DNA from: Rebecca billardiae RCC1528
Taxonomy: Eukaryota > Protista > Haptophyta
DNA length: 64,000 nt
NCBI GenBank assembly: GCA_965240325.2
Contig: OZ251226.1
Coordinates: 1,054,001-1,118,000, forward strand
Direction of reading: 5' to 3'
Below the pieces are notes generated by a model, which was not told the DNA's origin, did no database searches, and saw only the letters and a program-made list of their open reading frames with translations. The position numbers and the translations under genes are program-made. Below, in pieces: positions 1,160-29,493 of this stretch (position 1 is the first letter of the stretch; each line of letters begins with the position of its first letter).

Positions 1160-1549
1160 GATGCCTGTACTACTAATTTATCGAACGCTGACGTTCCGGG
1201 TCAGTCCGTGCGGATCTACCTGCGTGCGGCAGTATTCCGGCAAGTTCGCCCGACCTCTCGGGCTTATAAATACACGTATGTACCTACTATTGAGTATGAC
1301 TGACGCCGCGATATGAAAACGGATGACTGCGATCTAGATAAAATTAATATTATCAGGAACATCGATCATCAGGTTATACTGAGGAATAATTTAAAATGCA
1401 CAGCCATATTATCTGATCGGACTCATCTGGTCGAGTCGTATACGAAGTCTGTAACACTCAGTACCGCGTGACGACACGTATTACATGATACTCGTAATGT
1501 TTTCAGTGCCGATGGCGATTACAGTGATCGGACGCTTTTAAACTAAAAC

Positions 1550-2271
1550 TATTGGGTAAACGCGAGCTCCGAGCGTCTCGAGCCCTGCTAAGAGCTCACC
1601 GGCACGTCCTCGGGCGCGTCGTCGGTGACGCCCACGAAGGCAATCTCGACCCTCGCTCCTCTGACGAGCGAAGCTAATCCTCCTGCCGCAACCAACTTTC
1701 GGTTGCGCAGGGTGACACGGCGTTTTGCGGCCCGGCTCGGGAATCTTGTAACCTTCCTGAGCCCCGCTTCCGTGCGTCCGCCAATCGCAGGCGTTACCGA
1801 CGCACCGCCGTAAGCTCATCTTTCCCCCAGGTACTCGGTAATGTCATCGGACCTGGGTAAGCTGCGCACGGACCCATGATCCCGGATTCTCGATTCTCAA
1901 AACTGAGAATCCGGGCGTCCATGAATGAAGTGATCGAGTCCGTTGTTCCTTGGACTCTTCCACGATGGCGCCCGCCTGTGCCGCCGGCGTGCCATCCGTG
2001 CCGCGCTGCGCCGGGCCGTACCGCCCGCGCACGCGCCGCGTCCGTGTCGCTCCGCGTCCGCGCTGCCGCGTCCGCGCTCCGCGTCCACGTCGCTCCGCGC
2101 CAGCGCTGCTGCGCTCGCGCTCCTGCCGCCGCGCGCGCCGCGCGCGCGCGCCGCCAGAGCCAGCCACTGCGTAGCTGATGCCGCCGGCCCGCCTGGTGCG
2201 GCGCCGGCCCTGACGTCCCAGCGGCGACGCCATCTGCTGAGATGCGCGCCCCAGGCTGCGTCAGCTCAACA
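1550..2271 (-). repeat. 3' LTR
   Basis: Direct repeat of 8207-8928; element-strand ends TGTTG...CAATA. Confidence 0.97.
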
Positions 2272-2280
2272 CCCCCCCTC
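2272..2280 (-). other. Polypurine tract
   Basis: GAGGGGGGG immediately before TGTTG of the 3' LTR on the minus strand. Confidence 0.85.
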
Positions 2281-2307
2281 GACAGCCATAGCCGCGAGCT
2301 GCGCCGC

Positions 2308-5300
2308 TTACCGCGCGCGCGTCGGGTGTCGGTCCACCATGATGGCGTCGACGTGCCGCTTGAACGTCGCACCGTCCGTCGCCTTCGTCATGATGTCAGA
2401 GTGGTTGAGTGAGGTGTGTACCTTGACCACCTTTACCTTGCCACCCTCCTGCGCGTCACGCACATAGTGATGCTTGATCTCGATGTGCTTCGAGCGCTTG
2501 TGGTGCACAGGATTCTCCACGAGGTCGATAGCCCCCTTGTTGTCCTCTCGCACCTCCGTCGCGTCCCGCGGCGGCTGCCGCATGGACTCGAGTATGCTCC
2601 GCAAGTAGCTCACCTCGCGGCAGCAATCGCTCAGCGCGACGTACTCCGCCTCCGTCGAGCTCAGCGAGACTGTACCTTGCAGCCCGCTGTGCCACGACAC
2701 CGGCGCCCCATTGTAGAACACAATGTATCCACCCGTCGACCTGCCCTTGGTCTCCACCGGATTGCTTGCCCAATCGGAGTCAGCGAAAGCAAGTAGGTCG
2801 GGGTGCTCGGAATCTGTTGCAAACTTGAACAAGATTCCCAATCGCGGGCATCCACGTAAGTAGCGCAGCACACGCTTCGCACTTACCAGATCCACCGCCC
2901 GCGGACATGACATGCGTCGCGTCAGCATGTTCACCGCGTGCGCGATGTCCGGCCGCGCCGTGACCATCGCAAACATGAGACATCCCACCATCGCCTGGTA
3001 GTTCTCAATCTCCGCGCGCTGCAGCAACGCCTCGTCGTCGTCGCTCAGCTGCGCCCGCGCCGCCGGCTCCGGCGTGCGCGCCGGCGTGCTCGCGTTCAAA
3101 CCGAACCGCTGAAGCACGCTCTCGACGTACGGCCCCAGATGCATCAGGATGCCGTCGTCATGAACTTCAAACACGGCGCCCAGGAACTTATCGAGCCGCT
3201 CACTCAGCTTGATCTCGTAGTGCTCCTTCAGGTCAGCCGCCAGCTTCTCCACTGCGCGCGCGTCGCGCGTCAGGTTGAGAAACAGCAAGTCGTCGACAAA
3301 GCCGCCCGCGATGATGAACTCGCCCGGCGCCGACTCCTTGACGTAGATGCACGGCGCACTCGGACACTCCGAGAAGCCGCGCGCGAGCAGCTGGGTGCGG
3401 TGCGTGCGATGCCACGCGCGCCCAGACTGGCGTAGGCCCGGATACGCCTTCAGGCTCCGGCCCACGACTTTGTACCCCGGCGGCGCCTGCGTGCTCGGCA
3501 CGTAGCCCGGCGGGAACGAGAAGAGAGGCCGCTCATCCGGCTTCAACTCCGAGTTGAGGTACGCGTCCTTGACGTCGCCCTTCGACAGTATGCCCAGCGC
3601 TGCAACCGACGCTGCACCCAAGTCGACTCTCGCGCCCGCCTGCTGAGCGGCGATCGCCACGAGTAGTCGCACTTGTTCCGGCCGGATCGTCGGAGCAAAG
3701 ACCTCCTGAAAGTCGATCCCCGGCCGCTGTAGGTTCCCCAGTAGCACCGACCGCGCCTTGAAGCGCGTCACCTCGCCCTCCGGGTTCGACTTCACGTCAA
3801 AGACCCACTGGCTCGGCAACACCCGCGTGCCCTCCGGAACCACCACCTCCTCCGAGGTGCCGAGCAACTTGTGACCTTCCAAGTGCTCGAGCATGGCGCC
3901 CTGCCACTGGGGCGCCTCCGCCGACCGCATCGCCTCGCGATAGTTCGTCGGCACCTTCACGTTGATCTTCTGGAACACCGACGCGGCGCTGACGACGGCA
4001 GTAAGCAGCTGCGGCCGTCGGCGCGACGTCCGATCCCTGCGAAGCGGATCGTGTCCCATATCCAGGCCGGGCGGCGGCGCGTCCTCGATCACGCCGTCGT
4101 CACCGTCTGCGCCGCGCGGCGGCCCGCCAGCATCTGCTGCGGCCCCGCGCCGTGATTCCGTCGGCGGTATCTGATCCTGCCGACCCGGCTGCGTCATCGA
4201 CGCGCCTGCCCCGCCACGCCCGCCCTGCGGCGTCGGCGTCGACGGCTGTGCGCCCGCGCTGCTGCACCCGCGTTGTCCCGCGTCCACGCTGCTGCGCCCG
4301 CGCCCCGACGTTGACGCATCTGCGTCGTCGTCGTACCCGACGTCGAACTCTGTCGCGTCGTCATTCCCGGCGTCGGCTGGCGTCTCGCCGCCATCGCCGT
4401 CCTCGTCCTCACCGTCGGCGTCACCGCCGACTGGACGATATCCGCCGCTTACCGCGGCGTCGTCACCATCACCCACGTACGCGCCACCGTCAGGTGCGCC
4501 CAGCGACGAGTGCCCCCCCTCGACCAGGTCGGTCTCGTCGATGCGTACGTCACGTGAGTGAACGAGACGTCCGTCGTCTAAACGACATACGTACCCAAGC
4601 ACGTAGCGCCATGTACCGCGCCACTGCACGCCGTGCCCACCCCAGAGATAGACACGTCCGGGTAGTGCGCGCTGCTTCAGCTGCCCCAATGCATTGCGCC
4701 GTGCGCCCAGCATCAGCACGCGGCAGCGCGCGCCAAACGCCACGTGATGCTTCCACGTCGGACGTTTGCCAAAGAACAGCTCATCCGGCGTGAGCCACTC
4801 AATGTCTCCATCGTCACGAACGATACCACGTGACGCCAGTCGATTGCGCGACGCGCATGCGTGCCACGCCGCGTAGTGCCAATCGACCCTCGAGACTCCA
4901 CGCGCAACGACCGTGGCGCGCAGTCTCGACTTCAGCGTGCGGATAGCGCGTTCCGCCACGCCATTCGAGCTCGGCGAGTCGGGCGCCGACGTGACCGTCG
5001 ACGAGAACCCAAGCTTCGCCAGCTCACCCTCGACGTACGTACTCAGTAACGTCGAGCCACCGTCGGTGTGAATATGGCGTCGCGCCATAGTACACCCAGA
5101 CGCCAGGACCCAATGCGACATGTGCATGGCCCCTGTTCCAAGCAACTGCGCGTACCAGCGGAATGCCCGACCAACCTCGGCGTCATCCAAGCTGCGTAGC
5201 GCGTACACTTGCCATCGACGTGAATGCCCATCGATGAATATGATCCCATGAGGATACCCTCCACGTGCGCCATCGGCCCCAACTGGTAAGTCGATGCGTG

Positions 5301-5586
5301 CCATAGAGAAGATGTCGACGTGCGTCACCTGCCCAGGGTAGTGCGCCGTCGGCATCGCGTCCGCGAACGACCGCCGCGTCATGCCCGCCGCCGACTGCTC
5401 GTCGAGCGACTCACGCCGCGCGTTCGCCCCCTCCATCCCCTCGGCCACGCGTCGCGTGCGCTCGAGTAGACGTTGGTCATTGGTGCCCGTTCGAACCGAC
5501 CAAGTGCGCAACCACGCCGGATCAGCGCCTCGCGCCGCCTCCGTAGTGTTTGTGGTTCGCACCTGCGCGGGTTCCGGGCTTAGGCG
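2308..5586 (-). CDS. pol: Pol (integrase, reverse transcriptase, RNase H), entered by predicted -1 frameshift
   Basis: IN DDE: HVD, HTDGG, NGVAERAIR. RT: WVFDVK...RFKARSV, DVKDAYL, PGLRQSGRAW, FVDD. RNase H: FADSDWA, STEAEY, EDNKGAI, DIMTK. The ORF-track N-terminus (5988-5587) is off-frame overlap with gag-PR. Confidence 0.95.
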   Translation of the reverse strand, partial: RLSPEPAQVRTTNTTEAARGADPAWLRTWSVRTGTNDQRLLERTRRVAEGMEGANARRESLDEQSAAGMTRRSFADAMPTAHYPGQVTHVDIFSMARIDLPVGADGARGGYPHGIIFIDGHSRRWQVYALRSLDDAEVGRAFRWYAQLLGTGAMHMSHWVLASGCTMARRHIHTDGGSTLLSTYVEGELAKLGFSSTVTSAPDSPSSNGVAERAIRTLKSRLRATVVARGVSRVDWHYAAWHACASRNRLASRGIVRDDGDIEWLTPDELFFGKRPTWKHHVAFGARCRVLMLGARRNALGQLKQRALPGRVYLWGGHGVQWRGTWRYVLGYVCRLDDGRLVHSRDVRIDETDLVEGGHSSLGAPDGGAYVGDGDDAAVSGGYRPVGGDADGEDEDGDGGETPADAGNDDATEFDVGYDDDADASTSGRGRSSVDAGQRGCSSAGAQPSTPTPQGGRGGAGASMTQPGRQDQIPPTESRRGAAADAGGPPRGADGDDGVIEDAPPPGLDMGHDPLRRDRTSRRRPQLLTAVVSAASVFQKINVKVPTNYREAMRSAEAPQWQGAMLEHLEGHKLLGTSEEVVVPEGTRVLPSQWVFDVKSNPEGEVTRFKARSVLLGNLQRPGIDFQEVFAPTIRPEQVRLLVAIAAQQAGARVDLGAASVAALGILSKGDVKDAYLNSELKPDERPLFSFPPGYVPSTQAPPGYKVVGRSLKAYPGLRQSGRAWHRTHRTQLLARGFSECPSAPCIYVKESAPGEFIIAGGFVDDLLFLNLTRDARAVEKLAADLKEHYEIKLSERLDKFLGAVFEVHDDGILMHLGPYVESVLQRFGLNASTPARTPEPAARAQLSDDDEALLQRAEIENYQAMVGCLMFAMVTARPDIAHAVNMLTRRMSCPRAVDLVSAKRVLRYLRGCPRLGILFKFATDSEHPDLLAFADSDWASNPVETKGRSTGGYIVFYNGAPVSWHSGLQGTVSLSSTEAEYVALSDCCREVSYLRSILESMRQPPRDATEVREDNKGAIDLVENPVHHKRSKHIEIKHHYVRDAQEGGKVKVVKVHTSLNHSDIMTKATDGATFKRHVDAIMVDRHPTRAR

Positions 5587-5592
5587 TTTGGG
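5485..5592 (-). promoter_or_regulatory. -1 programmed ribosomal frameshift cassette
   Basis: Heptamer C_CCA_AAC (5592-5586) in the gag frame, spacer GCCUAA, then a long stem-loop at 5579-5485. Confidence 0.85.
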
Positions 5593-8207
5593 GGCGGCGC
5601 AGCGCCAATGCGCCCCCGCCCCGCGCCCACGCGCCGCACTGGCGCCCTGCGCCGTGCGCGCGCCTCCGCCGGCGCATCGCCGACGTCTGGCCCCACCTGG
5701 CGCCGTACGATCTCGGCGCGCAGCGTGGAATCGCGCGGCAGCTGCACGACGCCGCCTCCCAGCGCCGTAAAGTCCGCAGTGTTGCCGCGCTGCGAGTAGT
5801 GGAACTCGATGCCTGCGTCCGCGCAGTGCTCGACCGACAGCAGCGGCGCCGTGACGCGCTGCGACGCCCACGCCTCGATCTCGAGCGTGAGGACCTTGTC
5901 GCTGTCGTCGTCCGCCGCAAGCTTGACCACCAGGGTCCCGCGGTGAGTGACCTGCTCCCGCGCACCGTTCCCCCACTCGATCTGGCATGCGCCGTGCACC
6001 GGGGTAAGGTTCGTCAAATCCTCGGTCATGGCGATGTTCTTCCGTGCGCCAGTGTCAAACACCAACGCCCGCGTGTTGTCCTCCGGCTGCGCCACGCGTG
6101 CCTCGGCCGCCCGCGCCGCGACGATCTCGATGTCCTCGTCGCGCTGCGCCCTGCCGCCGATAGCCGCGCCAATAGGCGCCAAGCCGAGTCCGGCGCCGGT
6201 GCCGCCGCCGTCTCCGGCGTCTGCGCCACCGTCGCCACCAACGGCGCCGTCGGGCTCGTCACCCTGCTCGGGAGCGAACGCGACCTGCGTGCGGACCGTG
6301 CCGCCGCCGTTGCCATTACCGACCACGGCGCGGGTGCTCCCCCCGCTGCCGCCGCCGCCACCGCTGCCGCCGCTCCGCAGTGAGCCACGGCTGCGATCCG
6401 ACCGCGTCGACGCCGCGTCATCGCCAGCGTTCGAGTCGCGATCAGCCTGCGTCACCTGCGGGCAGTAACGCTTGATGTGCCCCACGGCGCCGCACTTGTA
6501 GCAGCGCGGCCCGTGCGCGTCGTCGGAGTCGCCGTGGCCTCCGCGGCCGGTGCCGCGGCCAGCACCGCCGCCACCGCCGCCGCCGCGACCTCCGCCGCCG
6601 CCACCACGGCCAGCCGGCGACGTCGCGTCGCCGCCGCCGCCACCACCCGCCGACGCCGCCGCCGCCTGCGCCAGGCGGAGCCCGTCGATTGGGTGCGCGC
6701 GGGTAGCGCCGCCGCCTCCTGGCGTGCGGCCACCCGCCCCTGGGCGCCCAGGGCCGCCGCGGTCAACCCGCTTGCCCTTGGAGAAGTCCCAGTCCTCGAA
6801 CTTGCCGTTGAGCTCGTGCACGAGCTCCTGCACGTCGAAGTTCGTCACGGTCCTGTAGTCCTTCGACTCGTACCGCGTCCGCATCTCGATGCCCGCGCCC
6901 ACCGACGGAATGAACTCGATGAGCCGCGCAAGCATCTCCGCCGCTGGCGCTGCGTCACTCAGCTCCTGCAGCAGCACGTGGTTGTGCTGTAGCACCTGGA
7001 AGAGCTCGAGGGCGCCGACGCCGTCCTTGCCGCAGTCCGGCAGGACCGTCCGATGCCAGCGTGCCCGCACCGACATGTACTTCCGCATGTCGTCGGGCTT
7101 GCGCATGCGCAGGATCGTCTTCCACAGGTACAGAAACTCGCGCCCCGGCGTAAGTGCGCCCCGGCGCGCGCGCTCCTCCTGCACCTCCGGCTGCGTCTCC
7201 ATGAGGCGATTGATGTGCTGCCACGCAGCCTCCGTCACCCACGACCGCAGCTCGGTGCGTAAGAAAGCCGTCCCTTTCTCGTACTGCGCCCCGGCGTACT
7301 TGGCGGGGTCCGCCTCGTCGCCGTCCGGCGCTGCCTCCAACACGCTCTGTCGGAGCTTGATGTCCAGCATAGCATGCTCGCTCGCCTGCCGCTCATGCAT
7401 CTGCTCCTCGGTCTCGCGCTCGCGGCGGTAGAGCTCGCGCGCGCGCGGATCGAGCGTCACGGCAGCGCCACCCGTGGGCGCCGCGCCACCGATCCCGCCG
7501 GCGCCGCCCGTAGGCACCGCGCCGACGCCGGCACCGCCCATAGGCGTCGCGCCGTCAGTCCCAGCCGGCGCACCTGCAGCGCCGCCTGTGCCCACACCCG
7601 GACTGGGTGTGCCGGCCGCCGGACCCGGAGAAATTCCGGATCCGCCGCCCGCCGCCGGACCTGAACCCGGTCCGGTCGCCGTCGGGCCGCCCGGAGTGGC
7701 TAAACCACTCCCCGCGCCCGCCGAGGCAGCCTGCGCGTAGCTTGGCGCCTGCCTCGCCCCCGCCGCCGCCGCCGCCGCGCGTTCCGCCGCGGCCCGGCGC
7801 TCGGCGTGCTCGCGGCGCTCGTGCTCGTGGCGATGGTCGAGCAGCCGCTGCTGCAGCGCGTAGTTCTCACGCGCCAGGTCCATCCGCTCGGCACTGACCT
7901 TGATCATCTTCGCCGCGGATGGGTTGAATGTCTCCCACGTCGAGTTGTACTCCTCGAGCGTGTTGATGCGGTGCTCCGCGTTCGGGCCGTGCGTCACGAT
8001 GATGCCGTTCAGTGCGGACATCGTAGCACCTTGCCCCGCCGGAAGCGCCGCCAGCTTGCTCGCCGATTGTGCGAGCCAACGCTGCTGAATCCCCTTGTCG
8101 TTGAGGCTCCCAACGTCGACCGAGCCGTAGTACCGGCCGCTCGTGCCCATCGGCGCGATCGATGAGAAAGCGCCGCGCGTACGATCCCTCCCGATCGCTG
8201 CATGCAT
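5580..8207 (-). CDS. gag: Gag-protease polyprotein
   Basis: CCHC knuckle CYKCGAVGHIKRYC and aspartic protease LVFDTGA...IEWGNG...APLLSV in the same ORF. The true start may be the second Met (MGTSG). Confidence 0.93.
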   Translation of the reverse strand: MHAAIGRDRTRGAFSSIAPMGTSGRYYGSVDVGSLNDKGIQQRWLAQSASKLAALPAGQGATMSALNGIIVTHGPNAEHRINTLEEYNSTWETFNPSAAKMIKVSAERMDLARENYALQQRLLDHRHEHERREHAERRAAAERAAAAAAGARQAPSYAQAASAGAGSGLATPGGPTATGPGSGPAAGGGSGISPGPAAGTPSPGVGTGGAAGAPAGTDGATPMGGAGVGAVPTGGAGGIGGAAPTGGAAVTLDPRARELYRRERETEEQMHERQASEHAMLDIKLRQSVLEAAPDGDEADPAKYAGAQYEKGTAFLRTELRSWVTEAAWQHINRLMETQPEVQEERARRGALTPGREFLYLWKTILRMRKPDDMRKYMSVRARWHRTVLPDCGKDGVGALELFQVLQHNHVLLQELSDAAPAAEMLARLIEFIPSVGAGIEMRTRYESKDYRTVTNFDVQELVHELNGKFEDWDFSKGKRVDRGGPGRPGAGGRTPGGGGATRAHPIDGLRLAQAAAASAGGGGGGDATSPAGRGGGGGGRGGGGGGGAGRGTGRGGHGDSDDAHGPRCYKCGAVGHIKRYCPQVTQADRDSNAGDDAASTRSDRSRGSLRSGGSGGGGGSGGSTRAVVGNGNGGGTVRTQVAFAPEQGDEPDGAVGGDGGADAGDGGGTGAGLGLAPIGAAIGGRAQRDEDIEIVAARAAEARVAQPEDNTRALVFDTGARKNIAMTEDLTNLTPVHGACQIEWGNGAREQVTHRGTLVVKLAADDDSDKVLTLEIEAWASQRVTAPLLSVEHCADAGIEFHYSQRGNTADFTALGGGVVQLPRDSTLRAEIVRRQVGPDVGDAPAEARARRRAPVRRVGAGRGRIGAAPPPNA

Positions 8208-8928
8208 ATTGGGTAAACGCGAGCTCCGAGCGTCTCGAGCCCTGCTAAGAGCTCACCGGCACGTCCTCGGGCGCGTCGTCGGTGACGCCCACGAAGGCAA
8301 TCTCGACCCTCGCTCCTCTGACGAGCGAAGCTAATCCTCCTGCCGCAACCAACTTTCGGTTGCGCAGGGTGACACGGCGTTTTGCGGCCCGGCTCGGGAA
8401 TCTTGTAACCTTCCTGAGCCCCGCTTCCGTGCGTCCGCCAATCGCAGGCGTTACCGACGCACCGCCGTAAGCTCATCTTTCCCCCAGGTACTCGGTAATG
8501 TCATCGGACCTGGGTAAGCTGCGCACGGACCCATGATCCCGGATTCTCGATTCTCAAAACTGAGAATCCGGGCGTCCATGAATGAAGTGATCGAGTCCGT
8601 TGTTCCTTGGACTCTTCCACGATGGCGCCCGCCTGTGCCGCCGGCGTGCCATCCGTGCCGCGCTGCGCCGGGCCGTACCGCCCGCGCACGCGCCGCGTCC
8701 GTGTCGCTCCGCGTCCGCGCTGCCGCGTCCGCGCTCCGCGTCCACGTCGCTCCGCGCCAGCGCTGCTGCGCTCGCGCTCCTGCCGCCGCGCGCGCCGCGC
8801 GCGCGCGCCGCCAGAGCCAGCCACTGCGTAGCTGATGCCGCCGGCCCGCCTGGTGCGGCGCCGGCCCTGACGTCCCAGCGGCGACGCCATCTGCTGAGAT
8901 GCGCGCCCCAGGCTGCGTCAGCTCAACA
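8207..8928 (-). repeat. 5' LTR
   Basis: Direct repeat of 1550-2271; the ORF-track translations inside both copies are identical. Confidence 0.97.
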
Positions 8929-9554
8929 AAAACTTCAAAGTGGCGGATGACGGTAAGTACTATATATATATATATATATATATTATGATCGGCTACGCCG
9001 ATCTTCGGGTAGTAAACAACGAAGTTGAGGGCGCACGGCCCTGGTAGGCTCTGGCTGGTAGTTGCTGTCGCGTTGGCTTCACCGCCAATCACACGGCACG
9101 ATGCTACCAGTCAGCAAAGCGCGCGGACGAAAATCAGTCAGCTCCGAGTCCGAGAGGGCCCCGGGCCTGCGCGGGTCCGGCGGTCGCGGCGCCGGGCGCG
9201 GGGATGCTGTCAGCTTCCGAGCCCGTACAGCTCGTCGCGCGCGCTCGGGGTGCGCGAGGCGACGCGGTACGACGGTGGCGTGGACCACCACCTCACTCGC
9301 CTCGCTACGTCGTCAGCGTGTACAGCCCGCCGCTGCCACTAGCGCCAAGTGGCACTGCTCGGAACAGCTCGATGCGTCGCGCGTCGTCGTTTGCGTCGAC
9401 TAGTCGCTCGGCCGGAGGTGCAGCTGACGCGCTCGCCGAAGCAGCACCGCAGCCCCCGCTCGATGATGTGCGCGGCATGAAGTTCGCACCGAACGTCTTC
9501 TTGTCGCGGCCCGGTGCTGCCCGCACTCGCTGCGGAGCGACCACTCGAAGATAA

Positions 9555-11642: not shown

Positions 11643-14450
11643 CTACTCAGACTGCTCCTCCTGCTCCTGATCTGCGGCTTCCTGCACGATCGTGCTGAGC
11701 GCCTTCGGGCTGAGCGCCTCCGCCACCGTCGTGGGCCCCATCGACGAGACGGAGCCATCCATGCGACGCTCGCGATGCTCGCTGCCGGCGCTGAAGCTGC
11801 CGTGCGAGTTGTTGCCGGCCGCGATGGGCTCCATGAACGAGCGCAGCACGCGGCAGATGTACTCGGTGCCGGACGAGTCCTTCTCGATGCACGCGGTCAG
11901 CCCGGCCGCCTCGAACTCGGAGCGGTCGGGCGAGCCGATCGGGTCCCCGGTCATGCCGATGATGATCCCCTCGTACCCGCTCGCGCGCAGCAGGCGCACG
12001 GCGGTCGCGCCGTTCATGCGCGGCATCTGATTGTCCATCAGGATGAGGTCAAAGGGCGGCAGGCCCTGCGCGCCGCGCTCCTCGACCATCTCGATGGCGC
12101 GCTCGCCGTGCCCTGCAGTCTGCCAGTTGGCCCCGACCGTCTGGAAGGTGGTGAGCGGCAGCGTCATCTGGAGGAACGCGTCGTCCTGTGTCGCGCGCGG
12201 CGGCGGTGGGCGCGCACACCAAAGGGCGGCGGCGATGGCGCGCGCGTGAGCACGGATGGCGTGCGCACGGATGACAGCCACGCGCGCACGGCGCGCACGA
12301 GCGCGGGGCGCGCGCGTCTCACCTCCACGTGCAGGCAGCAGAAGTGCGGAGGTATCACGAGAGGTGTCGCGGCGACAGACGAGTCCTGCGACACCGCCTT
12401 CTGCAAGCGCTCCTCGTGCACGTCGTCGTGCGGCTTGCTGGCCCCATCCGGCGCCGTCCCGCCCTTCTCGACGAGCTCAGAGAGCCGCTCGCCGAGCGTG
12501 GCCGAGGTGGCCGAGTTGGCGACACGCTCGCGGCCGAGGTCCTGGCGCTTGCGGCCACGCGACATGTGCTCGTCCATCGCGCGCGTCGGCACGGGCTGCG
12601 TCGACGGCTGCAGGTACACCAGCATCTCGAAGGTCGAGCCCATCCCCTCGCCCGGCGAGGAGATGACAAGCTCGGAGGAGTCGTGCAGCTTGAGGATCTG
12701 CGGGGGCGCGCACGCGAGCGCGCGCGAGCGCGCGTGGCACGGAGGGCCGCGGGCGCGGGGCGAGGATGACGGGCGGGACGCGGGACGGACGCGCGGCTAG
12801 CGGGTGCGCTGTGTCGCGCGCACGGCCCGCCCGCACCGACTTGCTGATGGAGAGGCCGAGGCCGGTCCCGCCGCGGCCCTGGAGCTGCCCGGAGCCGACC
12901 TGCGTGAAGCACTCGCCCGTGTTGAGCTGCTCGAGCTGGTCCGGGCTCAGGCCGGTGCCGGTGTCCACGACGGCGATGTGCACGAGCGTGAGGCCGTCGT
13001 CCTGCTGCCGCTCGTCGTCCGAGCCCAGCCAGCAGCGCAGGTACACCGCGCCGCCGCGGTCGGTGAACTTGATCGCGTTGCTCACGCCGTTGTTGAGGCA
13101 CTGCAGCAGCCGCCACTTGTCGCCGTTCCACACGCTCTGGCCGAGCTGCGGGTCGATGGCCGCGGGCACGAGCACGACGCCCTTCTCCTGCGCGAGCCCC
13201 TCGAACGTCGCGTGCGACTCGTGCAGCAGCCGCTCGAGCGTGAACGGGTGGCGCACGAGCACGAGCCGGCCGCTGTCGATGCGCTCAAAGTCGAGGATGT
13301 CCGAGACGATGTTCTCCATGAGCGCGCAGCACGTGTCGAGCACGTCGAGCAGCTTCTCGCGCTCGACGGCGCAGATGGGGTGCTTCTTGTCGCCCTCGGG
13401 CATGCGCAGCAGCTTGGTCACGTTGAGCACCGAGAGCAGCGGGCTGCGCAGGTCGTGCATCACGACGCGGATCAGCCGAGCGCGCGCGAGCTTGCCCTCC
13501 TCGGCCCGCGACGCATCGGCCGAGAGCTTCTCGCGCGCGCGGAGCGCGTGGAGGCGCGAGGAGCGCGCGTGCTCGAAGCGGCGGTGCACGCGCTTGCGCT
13601 CTCGCTGGGCCAGGACGACCGTGCGGCGGAACGCCCACTCGCCGCGCGACGACTTGGAGAGGTGGTACCGGCAGACGGTGGTCGCAAACCCGAGCATGAC
13701 GAGCGCGCCCAGGTTGAACGGGCACCAGCCGGCCTCGTCGGGCTGGCGCAAGTCGAGGCCGGCGCCGATGGCGATCGAGGGGCCGCACACGAGGCCGAAC
13801 GCAGGCACCGTCAGCGGCACGTACGCGCTCACGAGTGCGACAAAGGCGCCGAGCCGCAGCATGAGCGCCGCGTTGGTCGTGCACGCCTCACTCGGCGTGA
13901 GGATTTGGTGGAAGCGCCAGAAGAGGGTGAGGCAGATGAGCGTCCCGATGGTGATCGCCTCCATCAGGGTCTGCGGCACGTTGCAGAACGACTCCGATCG
14001 GAAGAGGAAGCCGAGCTGCGTCAGGACACCGACCACGAGCACGTTGGCGCTCCAGCCGTGCCGCTCGACGCTCAACTCGGATGGAAGTTCCTTCGTGCTG
14101 AGCGCCACGAAGGAGAGGCTGTTGAACAGCGCCATGGCCCAGAGCACGTGCGACATGGAGCGCCCCAGGTTGGGATACAGGATCTCCATGCGATACGCGG
14201 CCTCCACGTCCTCGTCCGCGAACGCGCCGCGCCACGTGCGCCGCAGCTCGGCCATGTCCTCGACGTTCGCGTCAAAGTCGTGCGGGAGGGAGGGGTCGCG
14301 CGGGTTGGCGGTCCCGGGTGCGCCTTCGAGGTCTTCGGTTGAGACCTCGCCGGTGTACTCAGACGAGCTCAGAGTGCCCGTGTCAGCAATGGTGCGGATA
14401 TCCTTCATCTTGAGAAACGCCGCGATGGGTGCGGTAGAGGGTTGTGCCAT
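11643..14450 (-). CDS. Membrane hybrid histidine kinase (TM-HisKA-HATPase-REC), copy A; exons 14450-12837, 12697-12323, 12185-11643
   Basis: H-box VMHDLRSPL, N-box NNGVSNAIKFT, G1 DTGTGL, G2 GTGLGLSIS. GT-AG introns of 139 and 137 bp restore SKS|ILKLH and LHVE|DD. REC motif LILMDNQMPRMNG. Confidence 0.93.
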
Positions 14451-15456
14451 CCGAAGACGGTGCTGTCCGTGGGCTGTGGGGAGCAGTACTTTTTGTGCCG
14501 ATGAGCTTCTCAACGGGAAAGTCGCTTCTCCGTTGCTTACAAATGTTCATCATTGGTTTGGGGAGAACCGGGAAGAACATCATGTACTACTATGCATTCA
14601 TGACGCTTCTGACGAGATATGACCCAAGCACATATGCATGTCATCGATGATATTCGCCCAGTGTCATTGCGACGGAACTCTGAGGTAGTGAGGTATACTC
14701 ACACCATCTGAAGGTGGACTCACACCACTTGAGATATCAGGGGGAGATTGTGATGCTTGATCCCTCAATACTCATACTCAAAGTTCTATACGAAATTCGC
14801 ACCGACGAAGCACCTCTCGAAGGTTGCTGAAAGCCTGAAACGGCGCGTACACTTCGCATGATCGATAACGACCGTTCGTAACAACATAATTGCATGGACA
14901 CAGAGGTCGCGCTCGAGCGCATCCTCGACGGCGGCTTTGACATCTCGAGATCTCGACCGGGGTAGCGACTCTAGACTGAGCCTCGTCCCGTGGCTACAGT
15001 AGTGGCGTCCCGGTGCCAGGCTGCAGGCAGCGCGCTGACCGCGGTGTGGCCGTGCGCAGCCGGCTGAGGCGCGGCTCGGACTCAGGTTTGCGGACTTCGG
15101 ATGCCCCGAAACGGCGCGGGTACTTAGTCCGCCCTCGGGCGTTGTTGCGCACGGCTGGGTTCGAGAGGCGCATCATCTGGCTTGCCCACGGGCCATGACA
15201 CACGGCCAGGGGCTTCCAAGAGCACCCGGTTGGAGGTCGTGAGGCGGGCCGGCACTTGACTCGCCTGCGCGAGTGGCCCCGCCGGGCCCGGTGGCGGTCA
15301 GCCTGATGGCAGTGAGTGATGACCCAATCAGTACTCTCGGCGGACCGCGCACTGATTACTCGACAGGCGGCCTGGCATACCAGTCAGGCACTGGTCTGTC
15401 GGCAATTACAGTACTCGCCGCGTGTGTCTGGCATGCGCCTGACTCCTGGTGCCAAC

Positions 15457-25281: not shown

Positions 25282-26691
25282 CACTGGCTGAGGCATGGAA
25301 ATCGAGCTCAGAGAGACGCGCGCGGAGGAAACGCGTGTGCCGCGGCTCGGACGGTTGCTCTGGGACCTACCCACGCCAGCGCAACCGCGCCTTGCCTCGG
25401 AGTCCGACCCTTCCTGACTGACTGACGGTCCGCGCACGCGGTCTTGGCGCCTGCGGCTTGAAACTCCGCGCTGGCGAGTGGCGTTCGACCTTGTGCGCGG
25501 AACCGTCACGAAACAAGGCGAAGGCGGCGAGAAGCGCGACCTGGCGCGTGCGCAGACGACGTCCCACGACCAGGTGAGTTCAGCGAACATCGTGCGCCGT
25601 CGTGGCGACCCGCCAGTGGGCGCTCAGTGCTCCGGTTCGCCTCGGCACGAGCCCTCGCGGCCACTGAGGCCGCCGCCCGCTGAGTCGGTCCAGAATCAGA
25701 TAGCCCCTCGTCCTGTCTGCCCCTGTCAGTTACCAGTTAGCCCGTTTCCACCTGTACGGCGATCCCCCTTGGCCAAACCGGGCTGAAGCTCCACCGAGGC
25801 TCCATGCAGTATGGATACGGTTATTGCTTACTACATCAGATGACTGCTGTTCAGTGACCGGTAATTAAGTAGTGAACGCTCACCGATCTATTTGCCTCGG
25901 CGCTTGCGGTGCGACCGACCCGTCGGTGGCTGTCACCAGCGGAGTTGCTCACCCTGACTACCCTTGACTGTCCGAAGCTCGACGAGCGAGCGGATCGGGT
26001 CTGCCCCCCCTCTCCCGCTGTGCCGCTTTCGGCGCACGCACGGCTGGTGCTGCAGGCGACGCTTGCGACTCCCGGCGCCGCGCCGCGCCGGCGGGCGCCG
26101 CCCGTGCAGGTCGCGGCGCGTGCGTGTTGGCTGACTGGCACACGTCTCCTGGCGCACAAGTCGAATGGCCGCAGCTGGGATGCCCTTTCGCGCCGCAAGG
26201 ACGCGTGCGAGGCCGGCCGCCGCGGCCGAGCGGCGTGGCCGTGCCGCCTGCACGCTGGGCGCCCAGGCCGCCCGCATCCACCGCCGCGCTTTGCCGTTGG
26301 AAACATTTCTGATCGTTTCGTTTTTTGAAAGTACCTGTAATTTCGGTGGAGGCGTTCCCGCCTTCAAATCATGGGAATTCATCCGCCCAACGTTTCGTCG
26401 AGGCCCTTGTTTTCGTGGCGGTTCCTGGTTGAAGGACGGATGAGAACATCGATGACAAGCGCATCGGGTCATCGATTACCTACCAGAAGCGTCATCAATG
26501 TCCATAGCAATAATGACGTTCTCTCAAGTCCTTCTCCGAGCGGGTAGCCAGAAGGAGCAATGATTGGAGGAGCGAACACTCATCAAAGTAAGTGGTTGGG
26601 AGAGGTACCGCGCGAAGTGTGGCGAATCACCCGACCCGTACGTGCACGAGAATTGCCCGGCCACCCGGCGGCGAACCACCCTCACGAGCGG

Positions 26692-29493
26692 ATGGCACAA
26701 CCCTCTGCCGCACCCATCGCGGCGTTTCTCAAGATGAAGGAGATCATCACCATGGCTGACACGGGCACTCTGAGCTCGTCTGAGTACACCGGTGAAGACA
26801 CGACCGAAGACCTCGAAGGCGCACCCGGGACCGGGGCCGCCAACCCGCGCGACCCCTCCCTCCCGCACGACTTTGACACGAACGTCGAGGACCTGCCTGA
26901 GCTGCGGCGCACGTGGCGCGGCGCGTTCGCGGACGAGGACGTGGAGGCCGCGTATCGCATGGAGATCCTGTATCCCAACCTGGGGCGCTGCATGTCGCAC
27001 GTGCTCTGGGCCATGGCGCTGTTCAACAGCCTCTCCTTCGTGGCGCTCAGCACGAAGGAACTTCCATCCGAGTTGAGCGTCGAGCGGCACGGCTGGAGCG
27101 CGAACGTGCTCGTGGTCGGTGTCCTGACGCAGCTCGGCTTCCTCTTCCGATCGGAGTCGTTCTGCAACGTGCCGCAGACCCTGATGGAGGCGATCACCAT
27201 CGGGACGCTCATCTGCCTCACCCTCTTCTGGCGCTTCCACCAAATCCTCACGCCGAGTGAGGCGTGCACGACCAACGTGGCGCTCATGCTGCGGCTCGGC
27301 GCTTTTATCGCACTCGTGAGCGCGTACGTGCCGCTGACGGTGCCTGCGTTCGGCCTCGTGTGCGGCCCCTCGATCGCCATCGGCGCCACCCTCGACTACT
27401 ACCAGCCCGACGAGGCCGGCTGGTGCCCGTTCAACCTGGGCGCGCTCGTCATGCTCGGGTTTGCGACCACCGTCTGCCGGTACCACCTCTCCAAGTCGTC
27501 GCGCGGCGAGTGGGCGTTCCGCCGCACGGTCGTCCTGGCCCAGCGAGAGCGCAAGCGCGTGCACCGCCGCTTCGAGCACGCGCGCTCCTCGCGCCTCCAC
27601 GCGCTCCGCGCGCGCGAGAAGCTCTCGGCCGATGCGTCGCGGGCTGAGGAGGGCAAGCTCGCGCGCGCTCGGCTGATCCGCGTCGTGATGCACGACCTGC
27701 GCAGCCCGCTGCTCTCGGTGCTCAACGTGACCAAGCTGCTGCGCATGCCCGAGGACGACAAGAAGCACCCCATCTGCGCCGTCGAGCGCGAGAAGCTGCT
27801 CGACGTGCTCGACACGTGCTGCGCGCTCATGGAGAACATCGTCTCAGACATCCTCGACTTTGAGCGCATCGACAGCGGCCGGCTCGTGCTCGTGCGCCAC
27901 CCGTTCACGCTCGAGCGGCTGCTGCACGAGTCGCACGCGACGTTCGAGGGGCTCGCGCAGGAGAAGGGCGTCGTGCTCGTGCCCGCGGCCATCGACCCGC
28001 AGCTCGGCCAGAGCGTGTGGAACGGCGACAAGTGGCGGCTGCTGCAGTGCCTCAACAACGGCGTGAGCAACGCGATCAAGTTCACCGACCGCGGCGGCGC
28101 GGTGTACCTGCGCTGCTGGCTGGGCTCGGACGACGAGCGGCAGCAGGACGACGGCCTCACGCTCGTGCACATCGCCGTCGTGGACACCGGCACCGGCCTG
28201 AGCCCGGACCAGCTCGAGCAGCTCAACACGGGCGAGTGCTTCACGCAGGTCGGCTCCGGGCAGCTCCAGGGCCGCGGCGGGACCGGCCTCGGCCTCTCCA
28301 TCAGCAAGTCGGTGCGGGCGGGCCGTGCGCGCGACACAGCGCACCCGCTAGCCGCGCGTCCGTCCCGCGTCCCGCCCGTCATCCTCGCCCCGCGCCCGCG
28401 GCCCTCCGTGCCACGCGCGCTCGCGCGCGCTCGCGTGCGCGCCCCCGCAGATCCTCAAGCTGCACGACTCCTCCGAGCTTGTCATCTCCTCGCCGGGCGA
28501 GGGCATGGGCTCGACCTTCGAGATGCGGCTGTACCTGCAGCCGTCGACGCAGCCCGTGCCGACGCGCGCGATGGACGAGCACATGGCGCGCGGCCGCCAG
28601 CGCCAGGACCTCGGCCGCGAGCGTGTCGCCAACTCGGCCACCTCGGCCACGCTCGGCGAGCGGCTCTCTGAGCTCGTCGAGAAGGGCGGGACGGCGCCGG
28701 ATGGGGCCAGCAAGCCGCACGACGACGTGCACGAGGAGCGCTTGCAGAAGGCGGTGTCACAGGACTCGTCTGTCGCCGCGACACCTCTCGTGATACCTCC
28801 GCACTTCTGCTGCCTGCACGTGGAGGTGAGACGCGCGCGCCCCGCGCTCGTGCGCGCCGTGCGCGCGTGGCTGTCATCCGTGCGCGCGCCATCCGTGCTC
28901 ACGCGCGCGCCATCGCCGCCGCCCTTTGGTGTGCGCGCCCACCGCCGCCGCGCGCGACACAGGACGACGCGTTCCTCCAGATGACGCTGCCGCTCACCAC
29001 CTTCCAGACGGTCGGGGCCAACTGGCAGACTGCAGGGCACGGCGAGCGCGCCATCGAGATGGTCGAGGAGCGCGGCGCGCAGGGCCTGCCGCCCTTTGAC
29101 CTCATCCTGATGGACAATCAGATGCCGCGCATGAACGGCGCGACCGCCGTGCGCCTGCTGCGCGCGAGCGGGTACGAGGGGATCATCATCGGCATGACCG
29201 GGGACCCGATCGGCTCGCCCGACCGCTCCGAGTTCGAGGCGGCCGGGCTGACCGCGTGCATCGAGAAGGACTCGTCCGGCACCGAGTACATCTGCCGCGT
29301 GCTGCGCTCGTTCATGGAGCCCATCGCGGCCGGCAACAATTCGCAAGGCAGCTTCCGCGCCGGCAGCGAGCATCGCGAGCGTCGCATGGATGGCTCCGTC
29401 TCGTCGATGGGGCCCACGACGGTGGCGGAGGCGCTCAGCCAGAAGGCGCTCAGCACGATCGTGCAGGAAGCCGCAGAGCAGGAGCAGGAGTAG
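26692..29493 (+). CDS. Membrane hybrid histidine kinase, copy B; exons 26692-28311, 28451-28825, 28963-29493
   Basis: Inverted near-identical paralog of 11643-14450 with the same motifs and the same intron positions and lengths. Confidence 0.93.

Follow-up and report, generated by a model that had tools for sequence, protein, structure and literature searches.

Predicted programmed -1 frameshifting at the protease/integrase boundary in a clade of Ty1/copia retrotransposons

Introduction

How does an LTR retrotransposon express its integrase (IN), its reverse transcriptase (RT) and its RNase H (RH) when the frame encoding Gag and protease (PR) closes ahead of them? This question is raised by a complete element in the window, a stretch of 64,000 nucleotides of GC-rich eukaryotic DNA from Rebecca billardiae RCC1528. 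Control of the ratio of Gag to Pol is a core constraint on retroelements. According to excerpts of two sources, copia elements reach an excess of Gag by a +1 shift between gag and PR (Ty1), a stop codon that separates gag from pol (Tca2), splicing (copia, EVD, BARE1) or degradation of Pol (Ty5) (PMC5580714, PMC2194720). In Drosophila copia, an excerpted source describes a short spliced RNA giving an abundant product of Gag and PR, which processes itself (PMC11835246). Layouts with two ORFs are known from the plant lineages Bianca (copia) and Ogre (gypsy), whose first ORF encodes GAG or GAG-PROT; the ORFs are separated by spacers of ~172 and 274 bp, respectively, the latter being spliced out (sections of PMC6317226). 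Diatom copia elements are said to separate gag from pol by at most one stop or frameshift (excerpt of PMC2806351). The survey of Gao et al. (2003), as summarised in part of PMC5009743, reports -1 pol frames in animal elements, copia and gypsy not being split. Retroviruses use -1 shifts between gag and pol and between pro and pol (passages of PMC12789967).

An earlier note on this DNA, made from the sequence alone, had proposed a -1 ribosomal frameshift between PR and IN. In this study, we follow this proposal through the element, its sister copies and its relatives.

Results

A recently inserted copia element with a single break between frames

The element occupies positions 1550-8928 on the minus strand (7379 nt of sense strand; Table 1). 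It is a Ty1/copia LTR retrotransposon that is intact and recently inserted; the recent insertion follows from the identity of the LTRs and the presence of a flanking 5-bp target-site duplication and a polypurine tract. These features are shared with Ty1/copia, as are the zinc knuckle in Gag, the domain order PR-IN-RT-RH and an RVT_2-type reverse transcriptase. The element differs from Ty1/copia in that its break is a -1 break located after PR, and in two features typical of the group without defining it: its LTRs end in TG...TA instead of TG...CA, and its IN has no HHCC zinc site. Alpharetroviruses have an env gene and the order RT-RH-IN; here only ~35 nt separate the pol stop from the 3' LTR, and IN precedes RT. 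No primer-binding site was identified in the element, nor any self-priming match of at least 8 nt to the LTR, and the window contains neither a tRNA gene nor a second copy of the element. Short palindromes are present at 8170-8213, in the region examined for the primer-binding site.

Table 1. Features of the retrotransposon and of its frame junction, in window coordinates
Feature	Position	Strand	Remarks
5-bp target-site duplication, upstream copy	8929..8933	-	same 5 bases at both element ends
5' LTR	8207..8928	-	722 bp; termini TG...TA; 100% identical to 3' LTR
Gag-PR ORF	5580..8150	-	856 aa from ATG 8150; 875 aa from ATG 8207; ends ...PPPNA-stop
Gag CCHC zinc knuckle	6456..6506	-	Pfam PF00098, E 1.2e-4
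Aspartic protease domain, gag frame	5733..6098	-	catalytic Asp (DTG) codon 6056-6054
Possible 134-nt GT-AG intron (rival reading)	5563..5696	-	best-looking among 18 GT-AG pairs with a fitting length
Slippery heptamer C_CCA_AAC	5586..5592	-	correctly phased; unchanged in X1 and X2 contigs
6-nt spacer	5580..5585	-	last gag codon and UAA stop
Predicted 95-nt stimulatory stem-loop	5485..5579	-	apical loop tolerates 30-nt in-frame insertion in sister copies
pol (IN-RT-RH), -1 frame	2308..5586	-	1092 codons past slip site; frame open from 6054
First IN N-terminal motif W-x-x-x-W-S-x-R-x-G-T	5482..5514	-	conserved in alignments
Copia-type reverse transcriptase	3070..3846	-	Pfam RVT_2 PF07727, E 3e-33
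Polypurine tract	2272..2280	-	adjoins 3' LTR; seen in sequence
3' LTR	1550..2271	-	722 bp
5-bp target-site duplication, downstream copy	1545..1549	-	matches upstream copy

From stop to stop, the frame-0 ORF extends over 8252..5580 and its 3' end reads CCG CCC CCA AAC GCC TAA. The DTG protease that the earlier note placed in this frame is borne out: the structure model (pLDDT 87.8) shows a retropepsin fold, its best Foldseek matches are retroviral proteases (XMRV PR, E 5e-4, TM ~0.5), and the catalytic Asp is invariant in 23 of 23 alignment rows. The domain also aligns with the protease region in a single-ORF copia protein. Its match to Pfam PF22936 is weak (E 0.15), and zinc knuckles were the sole matches in a sequence search of the PDB. 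The proposed fusion of ~1966 aa holds if translation starts at ATG 8207, which overlaps the end of the LTR. A start at ATG 8150, giving a fusion of 1947 aa, is at least as likely, since indels at 8184-8213 shift the frame in one sister contig.

Likewise, IN-RT-RH are encoded in the -1 frame as predicted (pol ORF 6054..2308). The element has a single break between frames, and across 5600-5450 third-position GC switches over from gag's frame to that of pol. The integrase core gives a weak match in the element itself (rve_3, E 0.024) and a better one in a pol homologue (P0006; rve, E 3e-5); RNase H, assigned from sequence motifs, is presumably present in pol.

The slippery heptamer and the predicted stem-loop

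The signal described in the earlier note was located in full, with C_CCA_AAC one codon ahead of the stop in the gag frame ending AAC GCC TAA, and all four named helices of the stem-loop found 6 nt past the heptamer. On the sense strand of the element this heptamer is the sole strict XXXYYYZ (Y = A/U, Z not G), while the window holds 58 such heptamers over both strands (0.45 per kb). The stem-loop is predicted at -53 kcal/mol (z -4.0), and none of 200 shuffled sequences folded as low. It is strong, not unique, because it ranks second among the 116 windows of 100 nt along the element. Four of these windows fall below a z of -4; the three others lie on the minus strand at 3080-2981 (RT-RH) and, two of them, within 7380-7181 (gag). 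No pseudoknot helix stood out in the element's own hairpin. Three parts of a canonical -1 signal are present together, namely a phased heptamer inside an ORF overlap, a predicted 3' structure at 6 nt and conservation in relatives.

Sister copies retain the break

A sister copy with one continuous ORF would point to a damaged sequence in the window. Contigs of the runs X1 and X2, from two studies, span the junction free of gaps and retain the break. In both, a 30-nt (10-codon) in-frame insertion is confined to the apical loop of the hairpin; X1 also has the form seen in the window. Among the X2 substitutions listed, two fall in the hairpin, in a bulge and the apical helix, and both are synonymous in pol; the change at 5542 breaks one pair of the small apical helix. 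Among the listed X1 sites, 15 differences are synonymous and 8 are not in pol, with 7 and 8, respectively, in gag. These counts cover 38 of 40 listed sites (two adjacent ones left out, 32 further sites outside the count) and are uninformative within the ORF overlap. In the runs X3 and X4, coverage was limited to a low-complexity patch.

Distant relatives at the DNA level

Two copia contigs, L101 and L106, assigned to a marine bacterial metagenome-assembled genome (MAG; G002), cross the junction, and in both of them pol lies in the -1 frame and the gag and pol ORFs overlap, as in the window element. In L101 (33% identity in IN), the Gag-PR stop is 5 codons past a phased G_GGA_AAC. A hairpin (z -3.1) follows 5-6 nt past the heptamer, and its loop could pair with a downstream 6-mer in a possible 6-bp pseudoknot helix. 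L106 (36% identity in IN) has no canonical heptamer and carries G_GGG_GAA instead; 6 nt past it is a perfect 12-bp hairpin (z -6.3), of which the gag UAA forms the 3-nt loop. A second strong hairpin is found just 5' of the candidate slip site of L106 (610-690, minus strand). For an analysis of stem covariation the sister copies are too close, and the hairpins of L101 and L106 are unrelated in sequence and unalignable as RNA.

Seven more distant loci, in which IN shares its frame with PR or the zinc knuckle, served as single-ORF controls. When metagenomes were scanned with pol, the 80 distant loci returned (25-39% identity) included none of this clade that spans the junction. Scans of viral contigs found nothing, and 301 and 401 prokaryote genomes gave no contaminating copies beyond three loci of G002. 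Eukaryotic copia contigs in bacterial MAGs (C75, C83, C92, C93 and C97 in G002; C75 and C188 in G001) apparently reflect contaminated bins; an actinobacterial MAG is the named source of one deposited pol homologue.

Most homologous Gag-PR proteins end in slippery-compatible tripeptides

A HMMER scan with the protease over 1.84 billion representatives (50%-identity clusters) gave 18 matches, unlike word-based protein searches with Gag-PR, which gave none. No full polyprotein is among the 18, the longest having 981 aa. In 12 of them a slippery-compatible tripeptide takes the last or second-last position, with 6.3% expected from composition. These proteins end in QGN (4), PGN (2), PKN-x or AKN-x (4) and PGK or QGK (2), and slippery heptamers probably underlie the tripeptides at the DNA level. 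The nominal P, 5e-11, is too favourable, since the rule was set after the ends were known and the rows are related (median identity 26%, four pairs above 50%). As a control, 1 of 7 pol C-termini passes the same rule. The six proteins off the strict rule comprise ends in QGE, QRN and APR, two that seem frameshift-broken and one gene model joined into pol. QGE, a 13th end, is the reading of the L106 site. From the catalytic Asp to the stop, the linker varies between 141 and 225 residues while the end motif is kept, as selection on a slippery site beside the stop would give. The seven close pol homologues (41-57% identity) all stand alone, with lengths of 1045-1171 aa, in a search that extended to 1910 aa. 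Among the homologues looked up, the sole eukaryote-named one is from the haptophyte Diacronema lutheri. It is a gene model (P0053, KAG8456909.1) in which the protease is joined to mid-integrase.

The split layout and the integrase N-terminus

An IN tree was built from 22 rows. A branch sets off the 10 split rows among them (89/94, not starred; 88% of bootstrap trees), and a further branch, at 100/99, unites these rows with the single-ORF locus L107. Rooted at its midpoint, the tree groups the split rows with L107 as sister, and thus suggests that the split layout arose by one gain from a single-ORF ancestor. In the N-terminal domain of IN (window 5514-5400, minus strand; P0001-P0007, L101, L106, L107) the copia spacing WHxRLGH...CxxC is kept, and all four zinc ligands of the HHCC site (H, H, C, C) are replaced across the clade and in L107. 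Because both the clade and its single-ORF sister are without HHCC, loss of the zinc ligands likely preceded the split of the ORFs.

Discussion

In the proposed mechanism, translation would mostly end at the UAA and yield Gag-PR, a product that would process itself and form the particle. In a minority of ribosomes, held up by the hairpin while tRNA-Pro and tRNA-Asn occupy CCA AAC, these tRNAs would re-pair on CCC AAA in the -1 frame, so that translation would enter pol. A Gag-PR-Pol fusion of 1947-1966 aa would be the minor product; PR would be made 1:1 with Gag, and IN, RT and RH would be scarce. Slippage itself, its rate and the resulting products are here inferred from the sequence. Three alternatives have to be weighed against this mechanism.

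Splicing is the main rival, since an intron of 134 nt in the right phase can be drawn across the junction. A minor splice would join Gag-PR to pol, as in Ogre, the heptamer and the hairpin being incidental or aids to splicing. The candidate sites, CAG|GT at 5696 and GCAG|G at 5563, are fair ones and spare PR and the IN motif, and the D. lutheri model likewise joins PR to pol. However, this stretch offers 90 GT/GC-AG pairs with a suitable length, among which one good pair is to be expected. The D. lutheri model enters IN past the region of the first catalytic Asp and would therefore yield no whole integrase; gene prediction has probably placed an intron over a frameshift junction there. Moreover, splicing offers no reason why 12 of 18 divergent Gag-PR proteins should have slippery-compatible ends, or why a hairpin should follow 5-6 nt past the site in three unrelated sequences. 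We regard this explanation as improbable.

Alternatively, Pol could arise in a translation of its own, through re-initiation past the gag stop, internal entry or an internal promoter. The stop abuts the hairpin or sits inside it in all three cases known at the DNA level, as might suit re-initiation, and a weak junction promoter is described for Tca2 in an excerpt of PMC2194720. Against this, the 3' arm of the hairpin encodes the first IN motif, which is upstream of the first post-stop ATG in the pol frame (5436), and in L101 and L106 no pol-frame AUG at all precedes that conserved motif. Re-initiation is disfavoured by this lack of AUGs. In addition, free Pol would have no Gag tether for packaging. 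Separate translation of pol thus appears more improbable still than splicing.

Least probable, and largely refuted, is a dead or non-autonomous family in which a 1-nt lesion or an assembly error split a single ORF: defective copies with identical LTRs are common, but independent contigs retain the break, relatives at 33-36% identity are broken at the same domain boundary and in the same frame, and fused proteins number 0 of 18 among the PR homologues and 0 of 7 among the close pol homologues.

We therefore prefer a programmed -1 shift of ribosomes where protease meets integrase, and consider it a strategy of the whole clade with a probability of roughly 0.88, because the sister copies, L101 and L106 and 12 of the 18 homologue ends keep the break together with a slippery-compatible site. 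A broader reading, to which we lean with distinctly less assurance, is that an undescribed deep copia clade in aquatic protists, haptophytes included, may have independently invented the Gag-PR / -1 / Pol plan of alpharetroviruses, with interchangeable heptamers including G_GGG_GAA and a working integrase free of the zinc finger.

The proposed layout would combine features of several known systems. In Rous sarcoma virus (RSV), PR is encoded in the gag frame. The -1 shifts between gag and pol or between pro and pol in retroviruses (RSV; MMTV, HTLV, MPMV) are alike in mechanism and presumably convergent; the window element belongs to another family, with no env, IN ahead of RT and a copia-type RT. 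Bianca and Ogre have a non-coding spacer, whereas the ORFs of the window element overlap and the stop has a slippery site beside it. The 1:1 yield of PR and Gag put forward in the earlier note would not be a novelty among copia elements, since the short spliced RNA of Drosophila copia carries Gag and PR together (excerpt of PMC11835246). That element has one ORF from which IN-RT-RH is spliced out; in the window element, with its two frames, the long product would need ribosomal slippage. The earlier note had called a -1 shift at this place unfamiliar in copia, and our full-text literature search, largely outside subscription journals, agrees: none of the texts and excerpts it covered describes a copia element that shifts to -1 from PR to IN, which is not proof of novelty.

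If true, a clade-wide -1 shift after the protease would be an addition to the known expression routes of copia and a case of convergence with retroviruses. With at least four heptamers and three 3' structures unrelated to each other, the clade would also allow frameshift rules to be examined on a series of natural -1 signals in algae and protists, in which recoding is little studied. It further carries a warning for annotation, as such elements appear broken or receive false introns, which seemingly happened to the D. lutheri model.

Elsewhere in the window, a near-identical pair of genes is found on the minus strand at 12477-14546 and 26548-28671, with ORFs downstream. Judged by their motifs, the genes would be histidine-kinase-like and the ORFs receiver-like. 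The two copies, ~14 kb apart, represent a recent duplication.
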